From a virus (lineage: Duplodnaviria; Caudoviricetes): a stretch of 56,216 bases of DNA. Below, piece by piece: positions 11,703 through 50,251 of this stretch. Positions within the stretch are counted from its first letter, which is position 1; the number at the start of each line of letters is the position of its first letter. The stretch is from positions 1-56,216 of the IMG/VR virus record IMGVR_UViG_3300023174_002623, one strand, 5' to 3'. The position numbers and the translations under genes were made by a program. The notes beneath the pieces are model-generated. The model did not search any database. It saw only the letters and a program-made list of their open reading frames with translations, and was not told the DNA's origin.

Positions 11703-13730
11703 ATGTCAGATATCTTTTCTTTTCGTTTATTAGATGATTTTATTGCAAAATATAAAGAGGTTGAGCCACCATTTGGATTCACAGATGCGGGTGGAAACTC
11801 TTTGGGTGAAATCACATTTATACGTACCTATTCTCGTGTAAAGGAAGACGGAACAAAAGAACGCTGGCATGAGGTTTGTAAGCGTGTAATTGAGGGTATG
11901 TACTCAGTTCAAAAGAACCATGCAAAAGAAAATCGTTTACCATGGAATGACAACAAGGCTCAGAAGTCTGCACAAGAGGCATATGAGCGCATGTTTAATT
12001 TAAAGTGGACTCCACCAGGCCGCGGTATGTGGACATTTGGTACTCCAATGACTATGGAGAAGAAGAACTCAGCAGCACTTCAAAACTGTGCAATGGTATC
12101 TACTCGTGATATTGAAAGAAATGATCCTGGTGCATTATTTGCATGGGTTATGGACGCATTAATGCTTGGCATTGGTGTTGGCTTTGATACCGTTGGAGCA
12201 GAAAAAGAATATCCTATTTATGCACCAACAGAACCAGTCTCTATCTATGAAGTACCAGATACTCGTGAAGGCTGGGTAGAATCAGTTAGATTTTTGCTTA
12301 ATTCATTCCTAAGACCAAACCAGAATATTCAGGAGTTTGACTACTCTCTAGTGCGTCCGCTAGGTGCCCCTATTAAGGGCTTTGGAGGCGTTGCAAGCGG
12401 TCCACAGCCATTGATTGACCTTCACTCACGTATTCGTAAAGTTATCGGTGGCAGGGCAGGAGAGAAGTTAGATTCTCGTGCAATTACAGATATTATTAAT
12501 CTTATTGGTACATGTGTTGTTTCTGGAAATGTTCGTCGTTCTGCAACACTTGCTTTGGGTGCACCAGGAGATGAAGATTTTATTAATCTAAAAAATGCAG
12601 AGGCATTCCCTGAAAGAAATTCATTTGATCCAACAAATCCAGGATGGGCATGGATGTCTAATAATTCTATTTCTGCAACTGTAGGAATGGACTATGAAAA
12701 ATATACAGATTTAATTGTTGATAATGGAGAGCCAGGTTTTATTTGGCTTGATGTTGCTCGCAATTATGGTCGACTAAAAGATCCAGCAGACGGTAAAGAC
12801 TACCGTGTTATGGGCTTCAATCCTTGTGCGGAGCAGCCATTGGAATCATACGAACTTTGTACACTTGTAGAAGTGCACTTAAATCGTCATGAAACCAAGG
12901 AGGACTTCCTCAAGACATTGAAGTTTGCATATCTTTACGGAAAGACTGTAACTCTTCTTCCAACACATTGGCAGCAGACAAACGGCATCATGCAACGTAA
13001 TCGTCGTATTGGAACATCTCTAACAGGCATTGCATCTTTTGCAGACGAAAGAGGACTTCCAACAACTCGTGAGTGGATGGATGAAGGATACGAAAAGATT
13101 CGTCACTATGACCATAAGTATTCAGAGTGGCTCTGTGTTCGTGAATCAATTCGTGTAACAACTGTAAAGCCATCAGGGTCAGTATCAATTCTTTCTGGAG
13201 CAACACCTGGAGTTCACTGGGGACCAGGAGGAGAATATTTCCTACGTGCTATTAGATTTGGTGAAACAGATCCAATGCTACATTTATTTAAGGCTGCAGG
13301 ATACAAGATTGAAAAAGATGTTGTATCTGCAAATACACAGGTTGTATATTTCCCAGTTCATTCAGGACACCCACGTTCTGAAAAAGATGTAACATTATTT
13401 GAAAAGATTGCTCTTGCTGCAACTGCTCAAAAATATTGGTCAGATAATGGTGTTTCTGTAACATTATCATTTGACAAAGAAACAGAGTCAAAGCATGTTG
13501 CTCCAGCACTTCACATGTATGAGGGCCAACTCAAGGCGGTATCATTCTTGCCAATGGGAAATAAAGTATATCCTCAACAGCCGTATACTCAAATTACAAG
13601 AGATGAATATGCTGATTATCTGGGTCAAATTAAGAAGATTAACTGGTCTGCTATTTATGACGGGGTAGATAATCTTGAGGCTCTTGGAGAAAACTACTGT
13701 ACAACAGATGTGTGCGAAATAAAACTGTAA
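11703..13730 (+). CDS. nrdJ: Class II (adenosylcobalamin-dependent) ribonucleotide reductase, monomeric RTPR-like
   Basis: FIRTYSR, WTPPGRG, LQNC, GIGVGFD, SGNVRRSA, GEPG, FNPCAEQPL...ELC, TTVKPSGS, and C-terminal YCTTDVC redox pair; no small subunit nearby. Confidence 0.95.
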   Translation: MSDIFSFRLLDDFIAKYKEVEPPFGFTDAGGNSLGEITFIRTYSRVKEDGTKERWHEVCKRVIEGMYSVQKNHAKENRLPWNDNKAQKSAQEAYERMFNLKWTPPGRGMWTFGTPMTMEKKNSAALQNCAMVSTRDIERNDPGALFAWVMDALMLGIGVGFDTVGAEKEYPIYAPTEPVSIYEVPDTREGWVESVRFLLNSFLRPNQNIQEFDYSLVRPLGAPIKGFGGVASGPQPLIDLHSRIRKVIGGRAGEKLDSRAITDIINLIGTCVVSGNVRRSATLALGAPGDEDFINLKNAEAFPERNSFDPTNPGWAWMSNNSISATVGMDYEKYTDLIVDNGEPGFIWLDVARNYGRLKDPADGKDYRVMGFNPCAEQPLESYELCTLVEVHLNRHETKEDFLKTLKFAYLYGKTVTLLPTHWQQTNGIMQRNRRIGTSLTGIASFADERGLPTTREWMDEGYEKIRHYDHKYSEWLCVRESIRVTTVKPSGSVSILSGATPGVHWGPGGEYFLRAIRFGETDPMLHLFKAAGYKIEKDVVSANTQVVYFPVHSGHPRSEKDVTLFEKIALAATAQKYWSDNGVSVTLSFDKETESKHVAPALHMYEGQLKAVSFLPMGNKVYPQQPYTQITRDEYADYLGQIKKINWSAIYDGVDNLEALGENYCTTDVCEIKL

Positions 13731-17383: not shown

Positions 17384-17779
17384 ATGAATCCATTAATTAG
17401 TCCAAAAACTGGTAAACCTATTGTAGGAAATGTACGTCGTCAGGTCATTGAAAAGAAATATAACTGGGGACTATACGTTTATAAGAAGTCAGATGGAAAA
17501 TGGTTTACAGACGGAGATGGCAACGTTTTAAACATTGAGTCTACTCGTGGAGATATTTTGCAGATAACAAAACTTAAGAATGCAGCAAAGTATTATGGTG
17601 ATGATGGTGAGGGAGAGGCAGTATTTGTCCCTGGACTCACAAGAATTAGTGAAGAAGAGCATTCAGAGCAACTAGATAGAATGAAGCAAGGTCTTATTCC
17701 GTCAATGAATGATTTAGGTGCTTGGAAAGCAGCACAAGATACAGTTAACAAGCATGGAAGAGATGCGTACGAAGCATGA
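17384..17779 (+). CDS. Hypothetical protein coupled to the portal gene
   Basis: 131 aa; ATGA overlap with the portal start. Confidence 0.75.
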   Translation: MNPLISPKTGKPIVGNVRRQVIEKKYNWGLYVYKKSDGKWFTDGDGNVLNIESTRGDILQITKLKNAAKYYGDDGEGEAVFVPGLTRISEEEHSEQLDRMKQGLIPSMNDLGAWKAAQDTVNKHGRDAYEA

Positions 17780-19401
17780 GCGAAGATTACGATTACATTC
17801 AAGCAAGTATTAGGACTCAAGAAGAGACTGAAAATCTTTTTAAATCACAAGATCCATTTGGCAAAGACTGGACAGTATTAAAAGATTATGTTGGCATTGA
17901 CCAAAACTTTAAGCGCAGAACCACAAGAACAGTTTCTAAGGCAACTTATGCATACAATGCAGTTGAGCCTTCAACACAGTATCTAAACTCTGCAAACGCT
18001 GTTCCATCTGGAGAAGGTGCAGAATCAAAGCAGATTAATCCTGGAACGGTATACAGAAATGGATACGGTCTATTTGATGTAATTACACCACCATACAATA
18101 TGTATGAATTGGCAAGTTATTATGATACATCTTTTGCAAACCATGCTGCAATTGATGCTAAGGTAGAAAATGTAGTTGGTCTTGGATACCGTTTTGATAT
18201 TACAGATAGAACAATGCTTCGTTTTGAAACTAACGATGATCAGGGTGCAGTAGAACGTGCACGTCGCAGAATTGAAAGAATGAAACTTGAGATGCGTGAA
18301 TGGCTGGAATCATTAAATGATGATGACTCATTTACAACATCTATGGAAAAGGTTTATACAGATCTACAGGCAACTGGAAATGGATTCTTAGAAGTTGGCA
18401 GAACCGTAACTGGAGAGATTGGCTATATTGGACATATCCCATCTACAACTGTTCGTGTAAGAAGATTGCGTGATGGCTTTGTTCAGATCATTGGACAAAA
18501 GGTTGTTTACTTCCGAAACTTTGGTGCAACCAATGCAAACCCAATGACAACAGATACCCGTCCAAATGAGATTATTCATATCAAGGAATATTCACCACTA
18601 AACACATACTATGGAATTCCTGATATTATTTCAGCGGTATCATCATTAATTGGTGATTCACTTGCTGCTCAGTATAATATTGATTACTTCCAAAACAAGG
18701 GAGCCCCAAGATATATTATTACAGTCAAGGGCGCAAAACTATCTGCAGACGCAGAAGATAAGATGTTTAGATTCCTTCAGAGCGGTCTAAAGGGTCAAAA
18801 CCATAGAACCCTATACATCCCACTTCCTGGCGATACAGATAATAATAAGGTTGAGTTTAAAATGGAGCCTGTTGAAACCGCAATTCAAGAAGCCTCATTT
18901 GAAAGATATAGAAAACAAAATCGTGATGATATTTTAGTAGCACATCAGGTGCCTATTTCAAAACTAGGTGGATCAGATTCAGGTGCAATTGCTGCTGCAA
19001 TGTCACAGGATAGAACATTTAAAGAGCAGGTTGCTCGTCCAGCACAGGCACAACTTGAAAAGGTAATCAATAAGATTATTAAAGAAAAAACAGATATCCT
19101 TACACTTAAGTTTAATGAACTTACACTTACAGATGAAATTGCACAGTCACAAATTATTGAGAGATATGTTAAGACACAGGTCATTACTCCAGATGAGGCA
19201 CGTGAGTTAATTGATATGCCACCAAGACCAGATGGTGAAGGTAATGCTCCATTCTCAATGACACCAAGACAAGCAACAGATGCAAGAGCAAATCTTGCTG
19301 GCAATCGTCAGCGGGATGCTGAAAGAGCAAATAACTCTTCAGACTCTCCAGCATCACTTGAAGGTAGAAGTCCACAAGGAGAAGGAAGATCATCTCAATA
19401 A
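17776..19401 (+). CDS. Portal protein (PBSX/HK97-like)
   Basis: HAAIDAK, TGNGFLEV, EIIHIKEYSPLNTYYGIPD, YFQNKGAP, AHQVP, ITPDEAR; directly upstream of protease and capsid genes. Confidence 0.93.
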   Translation: MSEDYDYIQASIRTQEETENLFKSQDPFGKDWTVLKDYVGIDQNFKRRTTRTVSKATYAYNAVEPSTQYLNSANAVPSGEGAESKQINPGTVYRNGYGLFDVITPPYNMYELASYYDTSFANHAAIDAKVENVVGLGYRFDITDRTMLRFETNDDQGAVERARRRIERMKLEMREWLESLNDDDSFTTSMEKVYTDLQATGNGFLEVGRTVTGEIGYIGHIPSTTVRVRRLRDGFVQIIGQKVVYFRNFGATNANPMTTDTRPNEIIHIKEYSPLNTYYGIPDIISAVSSLIGDSLAAQYNIDYFQNKGAPRYIITVKGAKLSADAEDKMFRFLQSGLKGQNHRTLYIPLPGDTDNNKVEFKMEPVETAIQEASFERYRKQNRDDILVAHQVPISKLGGSDSGAIAAAMSQDRTFKEQVARPAQAQLEKVINKIIKEKTDILTLKFNELTLTDEIAQSQIIERYVKTQVITPDEARELIDMPPRPDGEGNAPFSMTPRQATDARANLAGNRQRDAERANNSSDSPASLEGRSPQGEGRSSQ

Positions 19402-19441: not shown

Positions 19442-20770
19442 ATGATTATAAATAAAGCACACTGGATTACTGAAGGCGACAGCGTTCGTTTTTCTATGCC
19501 AATTGGCAAGGTAGACCAGGAGCGTAGAATTGTATCAGGTTTTGCAACATTAGATAATATTGACAAGCAAAATGATATTGTTACAACAGAGGCAAGCCTA
19601 GAAGCATTTAGAAAGTTTCGTGGGAATCTTCGTGAAATGCACCAGCCAAGTGCTGTTGGTAAGATCGTTTCATTTAAAGAAGATCGATATTTTGAGCCTC
19701 AATCAAAGAAGTTTTATAGCGGAGTGTATGTTTCTGCATATGTTTCAAGAGGGGCACAGGACACTTGGGAAAAGGTTCTTGACGGCACCCTAACTGGTTT
19801 TTCAATTGGTGGAAACATCACAAAGTCAGATGATACATTTGATGAAAAACTTGACAAATCAGTGCGTATAATTAAAGAGTATGAATTGTTTGAATTATCA
19901 CTTGTTGATAATCCAGCAAATCAATTTGCTAATGTTATCTCTATTGAAAAAGTAGACGGTAAGAATACAGTTAGCGGATACCTTTCAAAGACAGAAGTTA
20001 GAAATGTATTCTGGGATTCAGAAAATGATATTGTTTTAATGTCAGAAGATGATTCAGCAGATAGCCCAACTTCTGGAAAGCCTATGAAAAATATTGGTTT
20101 TGTTGAAAAATCAGATTCAGAAGACACAGAAAAAATAAAGTTCTTAGTTGATAGTGCAAAAGGCATTAGAACAATTAAGATGACAGAGGAGGAAAATCCT
20201 ATGACAGAAGAAACAACAATCGTTGAAGCACAGGGTGCAGAGACAGTAGAGTTGGTTGAAAATGTTGAGGTTGCTCCAGAGGCTGCAGCAGTTGCTGTAG
20301 AAGAGGCTCCAGCAGAAGTTCCTGCAGAGGATACACCTGCTACAGAGCCAGCAGCAGAAGCAGCACCAGAGGCTGAAGAAGCACCTGTTGTTGAAGAAGC
20401 AAATGATTCAGTTGATGCTGTTGTTAATGCAACAGAGGAAGTTGCTAAGGCAGTTTCTTCAATCAATGAAAATCTAACTAATGCCTTGAGCAATCTTGCA
20501 GAAACAGTAAAGTCTATGCAGACAACTGTTGAAGCAATTACGAAGTCCCTTGAAGCCGTTACAGGTGAAGTTAAAACTGTATCAAATGAGGTAAAAGAAG
20601 TCAAGGGTTCTTTTAATGAGTTTGGAAAGCGAGTAGATATGGTCGAAAAAGACACCGCTTTCCGCAAGTCTGGCGATCTAGGCGAGATCGTGCAGGAGTT
20701 TTCAGAAATGAAGACTCAGAAATCCCTATGGGGCGGTCGTTTCCTCAAAACAGCCGACTTATTCCAATAA
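19442..20770 (+). CDS. Prohead maturation protease fused to an acidic/coiled-coil scaffold domain
   Basis: RIVSGFA...DKQNDIV, LREMH, LTGFSIGG, ELSLVDNPANQ (HK97/XkdF-like serine protease); Glu/Ala/Pro-rich linker and heptad C-terminus. Confidence 0.9.
   Translation: MIINKAHWITEGDSVRFSMPIGKVDQERRIVSGFATLDNIDKQNDIVTTEASLEAFRKFRGNLREMHQPSAVGKIVSFKEDRYFEPQSKKFYSGVYVSAYVSRGAQDTWEKVLDGTLTGFSIGGNITKSDDTFDEKLDKSVRIIKEYELFELSLVDNPANQFANVISIEKVDGKNTVSGYLSKTEVRNVFWDSENDIVLMSEDDSADSPTSGKPMKNIGFVEKSDSEDTEKIKFLVDSAKGIRTIKMTEEENPMTEETTIVEAQGAETVELVENVEVAPEAAAVAVEEAPAEVPAEDTPATEPAAEAAPEAEEAPVVEEANDSVDAVVNATEEVAKAVSSINENLTNALSNLAETVKSMQTTVEAITKSLEAVTGEVKTVSNEVKEVKGSFNEFGKRVDMVEKDTAFRKSGDLGEIVQEFSEMKTQKSLWGGRFLKTADLFQ
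20201..20770 (+). CDS. Nested in-frame scaffolding protein (189 aa)
   Basis: AGGAGG at 20187-20192, 8 nt before the in-frame ATG 20201, where the composition switches to acidic low complexity. Confidence 0.7.
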   Translation: MTEETTIVEAQGAETVELVENVEVAPEAAAVAVEEAPAEVPAEDTPATEPAAEAAPEAEEAPVVEEANDSVDAVVNATEEVAKAVSSINENLTNALSNLAETVKSMQTTVEAITKSLEAVTGEVKTVSNEVKEVKGSFNEFGKRVDMVEKDTAFRKSGDLGEIVQEFSEMKTQKSLWGGRFLKTADLFQ

Positions 20771-20796: not shown

Positions 20797-21936
20797 ATGT
20801 CGGAACAAGAAATCGTAAAGAACTATCCAGGTTCTCCAACCGTAAGCCACCAACACGCAGGTGATGGTGCTTTCGCATCTGGTGATATTGGTGGTGCAAC
20901 CGCAACTAATCCATCAACATCAGATATCGGAGCAAACCTAGGAAATATTGCAACAGCAAACTTTGGTGTATCCAATGGTCCTAACGCAGTAAATCCAACA
21001 GGCACACCTGGAGGTATACTACTTCCAGAGCAGGCCCGTCGCTTCATCGACTATGTGTGGGATGCAACAGTTCTCGCCAAAGATGGTCGTAGAGTTACAA
21101 TGCGAGCAAACACAATGGAACTTGAAAAAGTTAACGTTGGTGAGCGTGTAATCCGTGCTGCTGCACAAGCAAGCAATGATTACACAAACTCAGGTGCAAC
21201 ATTCACAAAGGTAGAATTAACAACCAAGAAGATTCGTCTTGACTGGGAAGTATCTACAGAAGCACTTGAAGACAATATTGAAGGCGGAGCACTTGAAGAT
21301 CATCTAGTTCGCTTGATGACAAATGCATTTGCTAACGATATTGAAGACCTTGCTATTAATGGTGATGGTTCAACTGGTTCATTCCTTTCAATCATGGAAG
21401 GTTTCGTACACAAGGTAGAGAACGATGGCGATGCTCACGAAGCACTAGTCACCGTTACAGATAACAACTGGACAACTGACGTAATGCAGGATATTATTCT
21501 TGCAATGCCACGTAAGTATCGTGCTATCAAGCAGAACCTAAAGTTCTATGCTGGTACAGATGCATTCCAGGGTATCGTAAAGAATAACGGAACACTTGCT
21601 GATGCAATTGCAGAAGCGTTTGCTCCAAAGCCTGCTGGTACAGAGCGTAACCGCCAGGCATACCTTGATGGACAGGCACAGACATTCGGTGGAGCACGTA
21701 CAACACGTGTTCTTGGAATTGATGTGCAGGAAGTCCCTTACTACCCAGCAGATTATGTCGACTTGACATTCCCTGCTAACCGTATTTGGGGATTCCAGAG
21801 AGATATCACTGTAAACCGTGAATACAAGCCAAAGAAGGATACAATTGAATACACAGTATTCGTCCGCTTTGGTTTGCAATGGGAAGAACTTGATGCGGTT
21901 GCTTATGCAGACGCAGCAGTTGATCCTACTGCATAA
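20797..21936 (+). CDS. Major capsid protein (HK97 fold)
   Basis: AGGAGGTG RBS before ATG 20797; GGILLPEQARRFID, EVSTEALEDNIEG, FANDIEDLAINGD; followed by a terminator. Confidence 0.93.
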   Translation: MSEQEIVKNYPGSPTVSHQHAGDGAFASGDIGGATATNPSTSDIGANLGNIATANFGVSNGPNAVNPTGTPGGILLPEQARRFIDYVWDATVLAKDGRRVTMRANTMELEKVNVGERVIRAAAQASNDYTNSGATFTKVELTTKKIRLDWEVSTEALEDNIEGGALEDHLVRLMTNAFANDIEDLAINGDGSTGSFLSIMEGFVHKVENDGDAHEALVTVTDNNWTTDVMQDIILAMPRKYRAIKQNLKFYAGTDAFQGIVKNNGTLADAIAEAFAPKPAGTERNRQAYLDGQAQTFGGARTTRVLGIDVQEVPYYPADYVDLTFPANRIWGFQRDITVNREYKPKKDTIEYTVFVRFGLQWEELDAVAYADAAVDPTA

Positions 21937-21960: not shown

Positions 21961-21990
21961 GGAGGACAGGTCAAACTGTCCTCCTTTATC
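21961..21990 (+). terminator. Intrinsic terminator after the major capsid gene
   Basis: GGAGGACAG-gtcaaa-CTGTCCTCC followed by TTTAT. Confidence 0.8.
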
Positions 21991-22004
21991 AATTAAGGGA
22001 GATC

Positions 22005-22229
22005 ATGTCTTATCCAGGAAATCCAACAGTTTCGCATCAACACGATGGGGATGGTGCTATTGCAGTTGGCGGTGTAGGTGGGGCAATAATAATGGGTCCT
22101 AATGGAATGATTACACAAAACAATGTTTTAGGAAATATACCAACACCAATATTTGGTGATAACATAACAATTTCTGGAACACCAAGCGGTGTTAGAAGAC
22201 CACAAACATTAAGAGGCAGTAGGAGATAA
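22005..22229 (+). CDS. 74-aa paralogue of the capsid protein N-terminal arm
   Basis: AAGGGAG RBS; YPGNPTVSHQHDGDGA versus capsid YPGSPTVSHQHAGDGA. Confidence 0.8.
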   Translation: MSYPGNPTVSHQHDGDGAIAVGGVGGAIIMGPNGMITQNNVLGNIPTPIFGDNITISGTPSGVRRPQTLRGSRR

Positions 22230-22237
22230 CTTATCTC

Positions 22238-22246
22238 TGATATAAT
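22238..22246 (+). promoter_or_regulatory. Extended -10 promoter for neck genes
   Basis: TGATATAAT, then GGAGG before ATG 22263. Confidence 0.6.
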
Positions 22247-22262
22247 AGCAGTGGAGGATATC

Positions 22263-22619
22263 ATGATAACAACAGCAGAAGCAGTAGAAAAATTTACAAA
22301 AAAGACAGTACCACAATTAAAAGCCTATGCAAAAAAGAATAATATTGATTTATATGGAACAAGCACAAAAGAAGAAATGCTAGAGGCAATACTGCCTTTT
22401 GTACCAAGAGAAGATCCACAAGAAGTAAAAACAGTATCAGAGAATCCAACAGAAAAAATGGCTCTATATTCAGAGCGTAATCTTCATTGGAACGGTGTGG
22501 GTGCCCTTGAAAAAGGATATAATATTGTCACAAAGGAGGAATCCGTTAAATGGCTAACTCATAAGGCAGTGCGTGAAGCATCACCTAAAGAAGTAGCCAA
22601 ACATTACGGTAAGATTTAA
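22263..22619 (+). CDS. Small protein with Rho-N/HeH-LEM-like domain
   Basis: KKTVPQLKAYAKKNNIDL...TKEEMLEAI helix-extension-helix pattern; such genes commonly follow capsid genes. Confidence 0.65.
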   Translation: MITTAEAVEKFTKKTVPQLKAYAKKNNIDLYGTSTKEEMLEAILPFVPREDPQEVKTVSENPTEKMALYSERNLHWNGVGALEKGYNIVTKEESVKWLTHKAVREASPKEVAKHYGKI

Positions 22620-46975: not shown

Positions 46976-49900
46976 ATGAATTACGTAGGTTTGCATGTCC
47001 ATACACACTACTCCTTAATGGATGGTGTTGCTACTCCAGAAGAATACGTTAACCGAGCAGTTGAACTTGGTATGCCAGCATTGGCTATCACAGATCATGG
47101 TTCTTTATCTGGGCATAGGGAACTGCACCGTATTGCAAAAGCAAAGGGCATCAAACCAATTCTTGGCGTAGAAGGCTATATGACAAGTAATATGAATGAT
47201 AAGAGAGCAAAGGCAGAACGTACTGATCCTCTTGATTTAAATTATCATCATATAGTTCTTCTCGCTAAGAATCAAGAAGGTCTAGAAAATCTAAACAAGA
47301 TTAATGAAATTGCTTGGACTGAAGGCTTCTTCAGCAAACCAAGATTTGATTTTGATGTACTAAAGAAGTATAAAGAAGGACTTGTTGTTACCTCTGGTTG
47401 CCTTAGTGGTTGGATTGCTAAAGCAGTAGAACTAGGAGAACTTGCAACTGCAAAACGACATATGCAATGGTTTAAAGATGAGTTTGGCGATGACTATTAC
47501 ATTGAGGTTATGCCACATAATTCTGCAGAAATTAATAAAGGAATTATTGAACTTGCAGATGCAATGCAGATCAAGATTGTTGTAACACCAGACTGTCACC
47601 ATTCTGATTCAAGTCAAAAAGAAATTCAAGAGTTAATGTTAATTCTTAATACTCATGCTAAGTTGGAAAAAGATGCAACTTATGAAAAGTCTAAGAAAAA
47701 AGAAACCTTTATGGATAGACTTGATTATTTATATGGTGCAGATAGAATGATGAGTTTTAATAAGTTTGATATTCATTTGCTTTCATATAAAGAGATGAAG
47801 GCTGCCATGCTAAAGCAGGGTATTGATCGTGAAGACATGTTTACATCTACAATAGAGATTGCTAACAAGGTAGAAGACTATGATATTAAAGAAGGACTAA
47901 ATCTACTACCAGTGCAATATCCAAAGCCAGGTTTAGAATTAAAGAAACTTGCTATGGAAGGACTTAAAGAACGTGGTCTTGAAGGCAAACAAGAATACCT
48001 TGATAGACTTGATGAAGAGTTAACAATCATTAATGATAAAAACTTTGCTCCATATTTCTTGGTAGTTCGTAACATGCTTAATTGGGCAAAGAAGGAAGAC
48101 ATCATGGTTGGTCCAGGTCGCGGATCATCTGCTGGCTCATTGCTTTGTTATACACTTGGAATTACAGATATTGATCCACTAAAGCATGGGTTACTGTTCT
48201 TCCGTTTTATCAATCCAGAACGTAATGACTTTCCTGATATTGATACAGATATTCAAGATTCAAGACGAGATGAAGTAAAAGACTATCTAGTTAGACAATA
48301 TAGACATGTCGCTTCTATTGCTACATTCTTACAATTCAAAGATAAAGGTGTTGTAAGAGATGTTTCCCGTGCACTTAATATTCCTTTACCAGATGTAAAC
48401 AAAGTTCTTAAAACTGTAGATACATGGGAAGACTATTGTGGCTCAAGAAATGCTGCTTGGTTTAGAGAAAAGTATCCAGAAGTAGAACTGTATGGAGATC
48501 AACTACGTGGTCGTATTAGAGGCACTGGTATTCATGCTGCTGGAGTTGTTACTAGCAAAGATCCAATCTTTAAATATGCACCATTAGAAACACGATCAGT
48601 TACTGGTAGTGATGGTCGCATTCCAGTTGTTGCTGTAGATATGGAAGAAGCAGAAAGAATTGGTCTAATTAAGATTGATGCACTTGGCCTTAAGACTCTT
48701 AGTGTTCTTAAGGATACCCTAGACATGATTCAAGAAAGAGATAAGAAAAAGATTAATCTGTTAGAGATTGATATGGATGATAAAAATGTTTATCAAATGC
48801 TTTCTGACGGCTACACAAAGGGTATATTCCAGTGTGAAGCAGCACCATATACAAATCTACTCATTAAGATGGGTGTTAAAAATCTTTCAGAGTTGGCTGC
48901 ATCCAATGCTTTGGTGCGTCCTGGCGCTATGAATACCATTGGTAAAGACTATATTGCACGTAAACATGGTCGTCAAAACATTGATTATACTCATACTATT
49001 CTAAAACAATTTACGGAGGATACTTATGGCTGCATTCTTTACCAGGAACAAGTTATGCAAACATGCGTACAACTTGGCGGTATGTCCATGTCGGAAGCAG
49101 ATAAAGTTAGAAAGATCATTGGAAAGAAGAAGGATGCTAAAGAGTTTGACGAGTTCAAAGACAGGTTTATCAAAGGCGCTTCTGCCTATATTGCTCCCAA
49201 TCAGGCTCTTGATTTATGGCATGACTTTGAAGCACATGCGGGATACTCGTTCAACAAGTCTCATGCGGTTGCTTACTCTACGCTCTCGTATTGGACGGCG
49301 TGGCTAAAGTATCACTATCCATTAGAGTTTATGTTTGCACTACTAAAGAATGAAAAAGATAAAGACACAAGAACGGAATACTTAATTGAAGCAAAAAGAA
49401 TGGGCATACCAGTTAAACTACCTCATATTAACGATTCAGATAAAGATTTTAAAATTGAGGGTAAGGGTATCAGGTTCGGACTATCAGCGATTAAGTTTAT
49501 CTCTGATACGATTGCAGAGAGATATATTCAGGCTAGACCTTTTAAAACATTCAAAGAAGTAGAAGACTTTACGTTTACAAAAGGCAATGGCGTAAACACT
49601 CGTGCTTTAAATTCTATGAGAGCGGTAGGTGCATTAACATTTTCTGATAATCCTGCTAATCAGCAAGAGGTAAAAGAAAACCTTTATGAATACCTAAACC
49701 TTCCTGAGTTTAACACTTCTATTCCACAACACTACTATGCATATTTAAATGATGTAGAGGAGTATGAGGAAAAAGGAGCCTTCATCTTAATGGGTATGGT
49801 AAAATCAATTAAGAGAAGTAAGGGTTGGTCTAGGGTAGAGTTGTTAGATAAAACAGGATCTGTTGGTATTTTTGATGATGAGAATACTGTAATTGAGGCT

Positions 49901-50251
49901 GGAAGAACATATATTCTTTTGGTAAGTGATAATAGAATTATGTCATCTGTGCCAGTAGATGAGGTAAAAGAGTCTAAGGATGCATTGGTTAAATTCTTAA
50001 ACTATAAGATGTTGCCCTTTAAAGAGGGAGAGCACTTTGTAATCTCCTTTAAGCCAAGAATGACAAAGGCTGGAAAGAAAATGGCATCACTTACATTAGC
50101 AGATTCTGGTAGAGAACTACATTCTATTACTGTATTTCCAACAGCATTTGCAAAAGCATATATGAGTATTGAAGCAGGAAATGTTTATAATTTTAAGTTT
50201 GGTAAAACAAAAGATGGAACAGTAATTATGGAGGATGTGTCAAATGTTTGA
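46976..50251 (+). CDS. dnaE: DNA polymerase III alpha subunit (family C)
   Basis: LHVHTHYSLMDG, AITDHG, GPGRGSSAGS, FPDIDTD, HAAGVV, KIDALGL, YQEQVM, YSFNKSHA, IRFGL. Confidence 0.97.
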   Translation: MNYVGLHVHTHYSLMDGVATPEEYVNRAVELGMPALAITDHGSLSGHRELHRIAKAKGIKPILGVEGYMTSNMNDKRAKAERTDPLDLNYHHIVLLAKNQEGLENLNKINEIAWTEGFFSKPRFDFDVLKKYKEGLVVTSGCLSGWIAKAVELGELATAKRHMQWFKDEFGDDYYIEVMPHNSAEINKGIIELADAMQIKIVVTPDCHHSDSSQKEIQELMLILNTHAKLEKDATYEKSKKKETFMDRLDYLYGADRMMSFNKFDIHLLSYKEMKAAMLKQGIDREDMFTSTIEIANKVEDYDIKEGLNLLPVQYPKPGLELKKLAMEGLKERGLEGKQEYLDRLDEELTIINDKNFAPYFLVVRNMLNWAKKEDIMVGPGRGSSAGSLLCYTLGITDIDPLKHGLLFFRFINPERNDFPDIDTDIQDSRRDEVKDYLVRQYRHVASIATFLQFKDKGVVRDVSRALNIPLPDVNKVLKTVDTWEDYCGSRNAAWFREKYPEVELYGDQLRGRIRGTGIHAAGVVTSKDPIFKYAPLETRSVTGSDGRIPVVAVDMEEAERIGLIKIDALGLKTLSVLKDTLDMIQERDKKKINLLEIDMDDKNVYQMLSDGYTKGIFQCEAAPYTNLLIKMGVKNLSELAASNALVRPGAMNTIGKDYIARKHGRQNIDYTHTILKQFTEDTYGCILYQEQVMQTCVQLGGMSMSEADKVRKIIGKKKDAKEFDEFKDRFIKGASAYIAPNQALDLWHDFEAHAGYSFNKSHAVAYSTLSYWTAWLKYHYPLEFMFALLKNEKDKDTRTEYLIEAKRMGIPVKLPHINDSDKDFKIEGKGIRFGLSAIKFISDTIAERYIQARPFKTFKEVEDFTFTKGNGVNTRALNSMRAVGALTFSDNPANQQEVKENLYEYLNLPEFNTSIPQHYYAYLNDVEEYEEKGAFILMGMVKSIKRSKGWSRVELLDKTGSVGIFDDENTVIEAGRTYILLVSDNRIMSSVPVDEVKESKDALVKFLNYKMLPFKEGEHFVISFKPRMTKAGKKMASLTLADSGRELHSITVFPTAFAKAYMSIEAGNVYNFKFGKTKDGTVIMEDVSNV

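Follow-up and report, generated by a model that had tools for sequence, protein, structure and literature searches.

A small gene in the head module of uncultured aquatic phages, a free-standing paralogue of the N-terminal extension of their major capsid protein

The viral contig analyzed here is IMG/VR record IMGVR_UViG_3300023174_002623 (Duplodnaviria; Caudoviricetes), and its whole length of 56,216 bases, at an estimated completeness of ~52%, is what we call the window. Just past the gene for the major capsid protein (MCP; 20797-21936, + strand, 379 residues) lies a small open reading frame (ORF) on the same strand (22005-22229, 74 codons plus stop), which we call S. By sequence comparison, the protein that it encodes is a paralogue of a clade-specific extension of ~70 residues at the N terminus of the MCP, together with the first ~10 residues of the conserved part of that protein. 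The gene is maintained by selection in those phages that have it, many close relatives do without it, and its sequence features point to a head-assembly accessory of a kind that would be new to the literature.

Similarity of S to the capsid protein

The resemblance between S and the MCP is extensive and colinear. BLASTP gives one alignment, of S residues 2-70 with MCP residues 9-81 (20821-21039, + strand), in which 34 of 74 positions are identical (46%; E 4e-15), and tblastn inside the record matches S to the 5' part of the MCP gene at E 3.9e-13. The Smith-Waterman score of the pair is 150, whereas 2000 shuffles of S reach 33.6 +/- 5.9 with a maximum of 60 (z ~20) and shuffles of the first 90 MCP residues 30.2 +/- 5.8; because shuffles of both proteins score far lower, the match cannot be explained by Gly-rich composition. 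A preliminary description of this DNA, made from its letters, had proposed the colinear relationship to capsid residues ~10-80 and quoted three motif pairs in its favor (a 16-residue motif, LGNI... and GTP...), and all three are present. It had also remarked that the two DNA copies of the 16-residue motif differ mostly at synonymous sites, which agrees with a codon-by-codon comparison of 22011-22058 with 20824-20871: 8 codons are identical, 6 differ synonymously (including Ser as TCG and AGC) and 2 differ non-synonymously. The feature was given there as 21961-22229; its ORF is confined to 22005-22229, and the remainder (21961-22004) is noncoding, being taken up by a hairpin and a ribosome-binding site. 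A read-through or frameshift product that joins S to the MCP was considered and rejected because the MCP gene ends in a double stop (TAA TAG) and S begins 68 nt downstream in a different frame.

What was copied

Where the conserved part of the MCP begins can be judged from several comparisons. The PHROG profile phrog_1623 covers MCP residues 70-371 (E 1e-73), with profile position 20 aligned at residue 70, and the MCPs of 136 cultured phages align only from residue 72-74 of the window MCP. Streptomyces phage Comrade has an MCP with ~20 residues ahead of the conserved G-rich/LxxEQAxRFIDY start. An alignment of 79 MCP sequences from the group is near-invariant from GGIL-PEQARRFIDYVWD on, and its residues ~13-60 are variable. 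S, which matches MCP residues 9-81, overlaps the conserved part, starting at ~70, only in its last ~10 aligned residues. The preliminary description had taken S for a copy of the N-terminal arm of the capsid protein; because both the profile and the cultured MCPs begin at 70-74, S does not copy the conserved HK97 N-arm, and what is homologous is the extension in front of that arm. Within the shared region, an (S/T)GTPxG segment is present in all S and MCP copies, and some S clades carry a GPNAVNP(S/T)GTPxGI-LP-Q stretch that comes nearer to the MCP boundary than does the S of the window.

S as a gene family

When viral contigs were searched with S, there were 90 pattern matches, from which 63 loci were confirmed; from a search with the MCP, which gave at least 600 rows, the best 80 loci were used. 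After duplicate removal there were 108 distinct junctions downstream of the MCP, 104 of them with at least 330 nt of downstream sequence. At every one of the 63 loci with upstream DNA, S lies ~65-76 nt past the MCP stop on the same strand (locus L132, whose contig begins 36 nt before S, is excepted from this count). An intact S of 70-85 residues is found in 60 of the 104 junctions, with 58 copies beginning MSYPG and 2 beginning MSYS; three further loci were not scored as intact, namely L019, in which the back part of S is fused to a truncated MCP, and L014 and L143, which are cut by contig ends. Including the window, the family comprises 60 distinct DNA sequences and 56 distinct proteins.

The ratio of nonsynonymous to synonymous substitution rates (dN/dS, pairwise by the Nei-Gojobori method) is 0.12 for S pairs at a synonymous divergence of 0.05-0.3 (92 pairs), 0.16 at 0.3-0.7 and 0.36 at 0.7-1.5; the corresponding values are 0.16-0.23 for the MCP extension and 0.06-0.12 for the MCP core. 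A Shine-Dalgarno (SD)-like 4-mer stands ahead of S in all 39 distinct upstream sequences, and in the window it is part of AAGGGAG (21995-22001, + strand), as read from the sequence. S is a genuine protein-coding gene under purifying selection rather than a decaying duplicate: 60 distinct copies are intact, dN/dS stays far below 1 (0.12-0.36), and the start, the SD-like motif and the length are all kept. Protein-level selection (dN/dS 0.12 among close pairs) and a ribosome-binding site of its own had both been ascribed to the ORF at the outset, and both attributions stand.

S comes from many independent metagenomes, and a wider protein collection contains 18 relatives of it, of 45-85 residues. 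The only names among them are "hypothetical protein" and one stray "hydrogenase maturation factor," and none of the 18 has a Pfam domain. S had no match in a tblastn search of 50,697 GenBank phage records (E <= 0.01) and none in Pfam or PHROG at E <= 0.01, decoration and cement families included, and a Protein Atlas search with S gave best scores of 0.83-0.85, under the level at which such scores are meaningful. When a profile of S was run against 1.84 billion representatives, the matches were S-type proteins, MCP fragments and repeat proteins only. The distant matches among these (P0145 and P0147-P0152) are internally repetitive and were taken as compositional or convergent rather than homologous; they include P0150 (E 3.3e-4), whose repeated G-x-G...VAVGG.GTI.TSP.G resembles the middle of S.

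Presence and absence among relatives

Conservation of S in relatives, which the preliminary description had proposed as a check, has two sides: the 60 copies are intact, but many relatives have no copy at all. Among the loci fetched with the MCP, which form an unbiased set, S is present in 28 of 72 distinct junctions and missing from the other 44, and where it is missing a gene with a Rho_N/SAP-like domain comes directly after the hairpin that follows the MCP. Alignment of close pairs reveals a clean indel of ~245 nt that runs from the conserved hairpin to a conserved TCTGATATAAT...GGAGGA element. Five whole records were also searched with a profile: four of them gave the MCP N terminus only, and the fifth, which carries S, gave both the MCP N terminus and S; one of the S-less records is a complete 105.9-kb genome with terminal repeats. 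We mapped S onto a tree of MCP-core DNA with 84 rows, of which 48 have S and 36 lack it (seven loci with odd or rearranged N termini, L019, L044, L056, L068, L070, L076 and L080, were omitted), and its distribution requires at least 12 changes, 9 of which are forced by well-supported branches. Pairs of contigs with and without S can have MCPs that are identical at 375/377 and 378/380 residues, with 80/80 identical in the extension.

Two loci are rearranged. L068 (2992-5505) holds two tandem MCP copies, apparently identical over the regions compared. The second has lost its own N-terminal part, in place of which stand the 3' end of the MCP gene, the hairpin and ~15 codons from the start of S, joined out of frame to the MCP near its GANYG stretch. 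Either S and the MCP have really recombined unequally here, or the assembly is at fault. In L019 (1-1900) the MCP is cut at ~residue 346 and runs into the back part of S from ~residue 28, which represents either a deletion variant or a misassembly.

Duplication history and motif co-variation

In a tree of 45 distinct S proteins and 37 distinct MCP extensions, one branch separates the two sets (support of 98 in the Shimodaira-Hasegawa-like approximate likelihood ratio test), and the branching within the two sides is broadly similar. Because S and the MCP extensions each form one side, the tree fits a single old duplication followed by co-divergence, and on this evidence S has one origin, in a copy of the 5' part of the MCP gene.

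The 16-residue motif of S follows that of the cognate capsid protein, a co-variation that was looked for in two ways. Had the two copies diverged independently, the motif of S would be expected to match its own MCP no better than a foreign one, and this is not what the data show. Across 48 distinct genomes the motif of S is 72% identical to that of its own MCP and 64% identical to those of others. For 13 clade representatives the own-MCP identity is 0.618 against 0.496 for others, a value that 0 of 100,000 permutations equaled, and without the clade that lacks HxH it is 0.67 against 0.595 (p 0.0007), in a test that ignores relatedness and takes in few independent events from a handful of clades. 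Some of the parallel changes can be named: HxH is lost from both S and the MCP motif in the clade of L034, L065 and L050, and in another clade PTE replaces PTV in both copies. For the change from GDG to GEG the match is partial: some clades have it in both copies (L053/L054, L034), whereas L040 and L079 have it in S alone. At positions where S and its own MCP have the same residue, 253 of 546 codon pairs (46%) differ; since this is close to the 51% expected from codon usage, so that synonymous sites are saturated, recent gene conversion is excluded. The matched motifs would thus point to selection, or else to old short conversion followed by saturation, both of which keep motifs alike. A third protein with the 16-residue motif was found neither in the window (E <= 10) nor in the complete relative (profile search, E <= 1).

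Features of the S protein

S is laid out as an N-terminal 16-residue motif, a hydrophobic Gly/Ile-rich middle, the GTPxG segment and a basic C-terminal tail, with an overall composition of 17% Gly, 10% Ile and 9.5% Pro and a median isoelectric point (pI) of 9.97. The basic tail that had been picked out in the window (RGSRR) is general to the family, given that the last 14 residues contain two to five K/R and zero D/E in 56 of 56 variants. The middle of S (e.g., AIAVGGVGGAIIMGPNGMITQ) is hydrophobic, whereas the equivalent stretch of the MCP is polar. Some S clades have paired cysteines at positions 18 and 44, and Cys18 never occurs without Cys44, which hints that the two may be near each other in the fold or may form a disulfide or metal site.

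Structure prediction contributed little. The AlphaFold2 model of S from a 56-row alignment has a mean predicted local distance difference test score (pLDDT) of 49.3 and a predicted template modeling score of 0.16 and is not usable, its one feature being three strands of low confidence at residues 19-38; that of the MCP, from 79 rows all at least 78% identical, has a mean pLDDT of 34.8 and is not usable either. Prediction of an MCP and S complex returned no answer (score 0.00), which counts neither way.

Flanking signals and RNA-library contigs

The GC-rich hairpin past the MCP stop (21961-21984, + strand) has a 9-bp stem with 6 GC pairs and a 6-nt loop. A strong fold at this place (<= -8 kcal/mol) occurs in 87 of 87 distinct sequences, whether S is present or not, and in 23 of 24 listed rows its energy is -22 to -30, the exception being the rearranged L019 (-12.4). 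Changes in the stem occur on both sides (GGAGGACAG/CTGTCCTCC, GGAGGGCAG/CTGCCCTCC, GGAGGGTAG/CTACCCTCC). On the + strand the hairpin is followed by TTTAT and then CAATT, and in relatives by TTA or TTT and then mixed bases; a terminator scan that requires five T in eight flags the hairpin on the - strand only. Because the U-tract on the + strand is only TTTAT and the scan is positive on the - strand only, we describe the element as a conserved hairpin and maybe a weak terminator; it may be this, or a stabilizer of the MCP mRNA, rather than a strong terminator. Of the capsid terminator that the preliminary description had placed ahead of S, then, the conserved GC-rich hairpin is borne out, and with so short a U-tract termination is plausible only.

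Between S and the next gene there is a second conserved element, the extended -10-like TGATATAAT (22238-22246, + strand). Together with a following GGAGGA (22238-22262 in all) it stands ahead of the Rho_N/SAP-like gene and is kept in phages with and without S. It marks the right edge of the S indel, because in relatives without S it comes directly after the hairpin, and its sequence suggests a possible promoter for the genes downstream of the MCP.

Contigs assembled from RNA libraries, which can contain DNA, cover S in two of four runs (X2 and X4). Run X2 yielded a 417-nt contig (21844-22261) that starts in the 3' end of the MCP gene, crosses the hairpin and includes the whole of S, with 24 differences from the window, and run X4 a 211-nt contig spanning 22050-22259. 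Another X2 contig joins 21920 to 22236 and skips 315 nt, as would an S-less form in the same sample, and it is a weak observation with 22 letters only on its shorter side. Contig depths are no measure by which genes can be ranked, and a much lower summed contig depth past 21949 and the lack of S cover in runs X1 and X5 were not counted as evidence.

Genomic context

The head module of the window is on the + strand and consists, in order, of the portal gene (17776-19401; PF04860), a fusion of a prohead protease (Peptidase_S78) with a C-terminal coiled-coil scaffold-like part (19442-20770), directly upstream of the MCP, then the MCP itself and S. The protease-scaffold fusion matches PF04586 (E 3.9e-08) and PF14550 in Pfam and phrog_9427, "head maturation protease," in PHROG (E 1.5e-118). 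The MCP is of the HK97/Phage_capsid type, is taken to start at ATG 20797 as in relatives, and has close relatives that carry precomputed PF05065; a sequence search of the PDB with it gave a single, chance-level match (E 0.37). The cultured phages nearest by MCP infect Streptomyces (127 records) and Rhodococcus (9 records), at 42-43% protein identity. Among 7998 candidates scored there were 3301 relatives of the MCP at E <= 1e-10, which belong to an uncultured aquatic phage group, and the relatives listed from the protein collection are all at least 91% identical, so that the alignment is not deepened by them.

The gene after S (22263-22619, + strand, 118 residues), which adjoins the MCP in relatives without S, encodes the N-terminal Rho_N/SAP-like domain (PF07498, E 3.6e-06). 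It also has a conserved C-terminal part, ALYS..N..W.GVG.L..GYNIV, to which it is reduced (72-80 residues) in some relatives (L023, L031, L045). Elsewhere on the contig are genes for a carbamoyltransferase (1185-2609), a B12-dependent class II ribonucleotide reductase (11703-13730) and a DnaE-type Pol III alpha subunit (46976-50251).

Proposed role and alternatives

Tentatively, and with confidence that falls somewhat short of even, we propose that S serves as a head accessory in substoichiometric amounts, mimicking the MCP extension and sharing its partner in procapsid assembly. S retains the 16-residue N-terminal "label" of the extension, and because the label is the same we suppose that S could engage the binding partner of the extension while the procapsid is being assembled. 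A few copies would then be taken into or onto the assembling head beside the MCP, and S may be kept below MCP levels by having its gene behind the hairpin. If S comes to lie inside the capsid, its basic, acid-free tail could contact packaged DNA, or could be freed should the S78 protease cut S, as that protease may likewise cut the MCP.

Several observations weigh against this proposal. S is dispensable, in that the phage assembles without it and with its MCP unchanged. Nor is S a simple mimic of the MCP extension, because its middle is far more hydrophobic. The p-values for motif matching are overstated, because the test ignores relatedness and independent parallel changes are few, and old short conversions with synonymous saturation would yield the same motif pattern. 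The scaffold C terminus was tried as the co-varying partner and rejected, its last ~40 residues being near-invariant whatever the motif type of the MCP. Finally, the RNA-library contigs speak only to presence in RNA-library assemblies and carry no expression level.

Among other explanations, an improbable but credible one is that S is a decoration or cement protein on the outside of the mature capsid, where it would stabilize the shell, perhaps by adding strands beside an exposed MCP extension, while being dispensable. Its small size (70-85 residues), a gene that adjoins that of the MCP, its dispensability and its patchy distribution all fit, the MCP extension evolves faster than the core (0.16-0.23 versus 0.06-0.12), as a surface part might, and the cysteine pair of some clades could matter outside the cell. 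However, decoration proteins are usually made in near-MCP amounts, and S comes after the post-MCP hairpin; an acid-free, Arg-rich tail is not expected on an outer surface; and S is without a Pfam or PHROG match, known decoration families included.

We give the same modest weight to the idea that S regulates the prohead protease-scaffold or competes for it as a substrate, offering the propeptide and cleavage region that the MCP also has and so timing or buffering maturation cleavage. S spans the whole extension and ~10 core residues, and so reaches across the (S/T)GTPxG segment kept in all copies, where HK97-type capsids would lead one to expect the maturation cut; the gene for an S78 protease lies two genes upstream of S. 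Yet cleavage of the MCP is itself putative here, and S has been lost without change in the MCP or, as far as seen, in the scaffold C terminus.

Rather doubtful, in our estimation, is a bolder view of S as a free-standing mimic of the MCP label that co-evolves with it and serves either as a decoy for a host sensor or protease or as the first capsid propeptide to be separately duplicated, carrying a basic peptide into the head. Taken by itself, an anti-defense or anti-host decoy, which would soak up a host sensor or protease that recognizes the MCP label, seems to us a distinctly long shot. Capsid proteins are known triggers of bacterial defense, and a preprint reportedly describes escape from CBASS (cyclic-oligonucleotide-based antiphage signaling system) through MCP and protease mutations. 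At least 12 gains or losses among near-identical phages are typical of counter-defense genes, and the label differs between clades with S tracking it. S would nonetheless be poor as a decoy because, lying behind the MCP in a late structural operon, it would be made no earlier and in no greater amount than the target that it is to protect.

The preliminary description had named an assembly regulator or decoy as one alternative, and this may hold. Its other model was a low-copy, trans-acting arm that fills empty grooves at the portal vertex or the pentons, suggested by the homology to the MCP N-terminal region and by the place behind the hairpin, which would be in keeping with a low copy number. 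We regard the arm model as very unlikely because the symmetry mismatch exists in every relative and S does not: it is lacking from 44 of 72 junctions and from a complete genome, it has changed state at least 12 times, and MCPs identical at 375/377 and 378/380 residues occur with and without it, besides which the homologous part is the non-conserved extension and not the conserved N-arm. That S is what a partial MCP duplication left behind, without function, or is a product of misassembly, draws some color from the rearrangements in L068 (a tandem MCP joined through the start of S) and L019 (a truncated MCP fused to S). This reading is already contradicted by the conservation data, with 60 intact copies, dN/dS far below 1 and a conserved start, SD-like motif and length, and by the occurrence of S in many independent metagenomes, and its probability is close to nil.

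Comparison with known systems

Assembly of HK97-type heads has a usual cast of portal, protease, scaffold and MCP, sometimes with decoration proteins. Propeptides of the HK97 delta-domain or P2 gpN type form an N-terminal segment before the N-arm in PF05065-type MCPs that occur with a prohead protease, and we know of such propeptides only within the MCP chain. The MCP extension of the window, by contrast, is rich in Gly and forms no coiled coil, and any cleavage of it is putative. T4 Soc and lambda gpD are small decoration proteins whose genes lie in the head module, and Soc is dispensable. S is like them in size and in the place of its gene, and like Soc in dispensability, but it differs in having no family match, a basic tail, a position behind a hairpin, and homology to the MCP.

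Satellites also make proteins that resemble those of phage heads. SaPI1 CpmB is said to resemble a head protein of the helper phage and to alter assembly by taking its place, and SaPIbov5 Ccm is presumably full-length. The portion of the Ccm literature drawn on here presents it as a satellite homologue of the phage capsid protein that takes the place of the latter and alters assembly (PMC8569155). S, in contrast to these satellite proteins, is the phage's own gene, corresponds to the N-terminal extension only, and comes with no indication of a size change.

Head proteins that share an N-terminal label have been described in two phages. According to the excerpted account of phage 80alpha, its capsid and scaffolding proteins have a common N-terminal cleavage motif for the protease Prp that matters for assembly (PMC5744158), so that, as with S, one N-terminal sequence is found both on the MCP and on another head protein. 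The motif there has 13-14 residues and ends in an F|A site that a host protease cuts, and the proteins that bear it are otherwise unrelated (PMC5744158, same excerpt), whereas S and the MCP are similar over ~70 residues and the S78 protease is the phage's own. S has no F within its first 20 residues, and its motif is of the type YPG..H.H.GDG rather than the Prp type. The internal proteins of T4, as far as the cited extract describes them, have a short shared N-terminal capsid targeting sequence (CTS) that directs them into the prohead, and they are small, basic, dispensable, head-associated and variable between relatives (PMC3012670). S resembles them in being small, basic (pI 9.97), dispensable and variable (present in 28 of 72 relatives), and probably in being head-associated. 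The T4 label, however, is common to cargo proteins and is not homologous to an MCP propeptide, whereas S as a whole is an MCP-extension paralogue; in contrast to the CTS, targeting and cleavage of S are putative.

Head accessories that share an N-terminal label with another head protein are thus already known, and S would extend that kind. A search of open-access papers and preprints turned up no account of an MCP N-terminal extension with a paralogue encoded by a gene of its own. Abundant uncultured aquatic phages carry this extra small gene in the head module, and its motif shifts in step with that of the MCP. If the decoy or the duplicated-propeptide reading is true, S would represent a new class of capsid accessory, and in the case of a decoy the N termini of capsid proteins would be linked to host recognition. 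Should the shared motif prove to be an address label, the binding site that it marks out could be mapped and exploited, for example in loading cargo into capsids. Phages with and without S whose MCPs are identical amount to a natural experiment, one that allows the role of the MCP extension to be tested directly.

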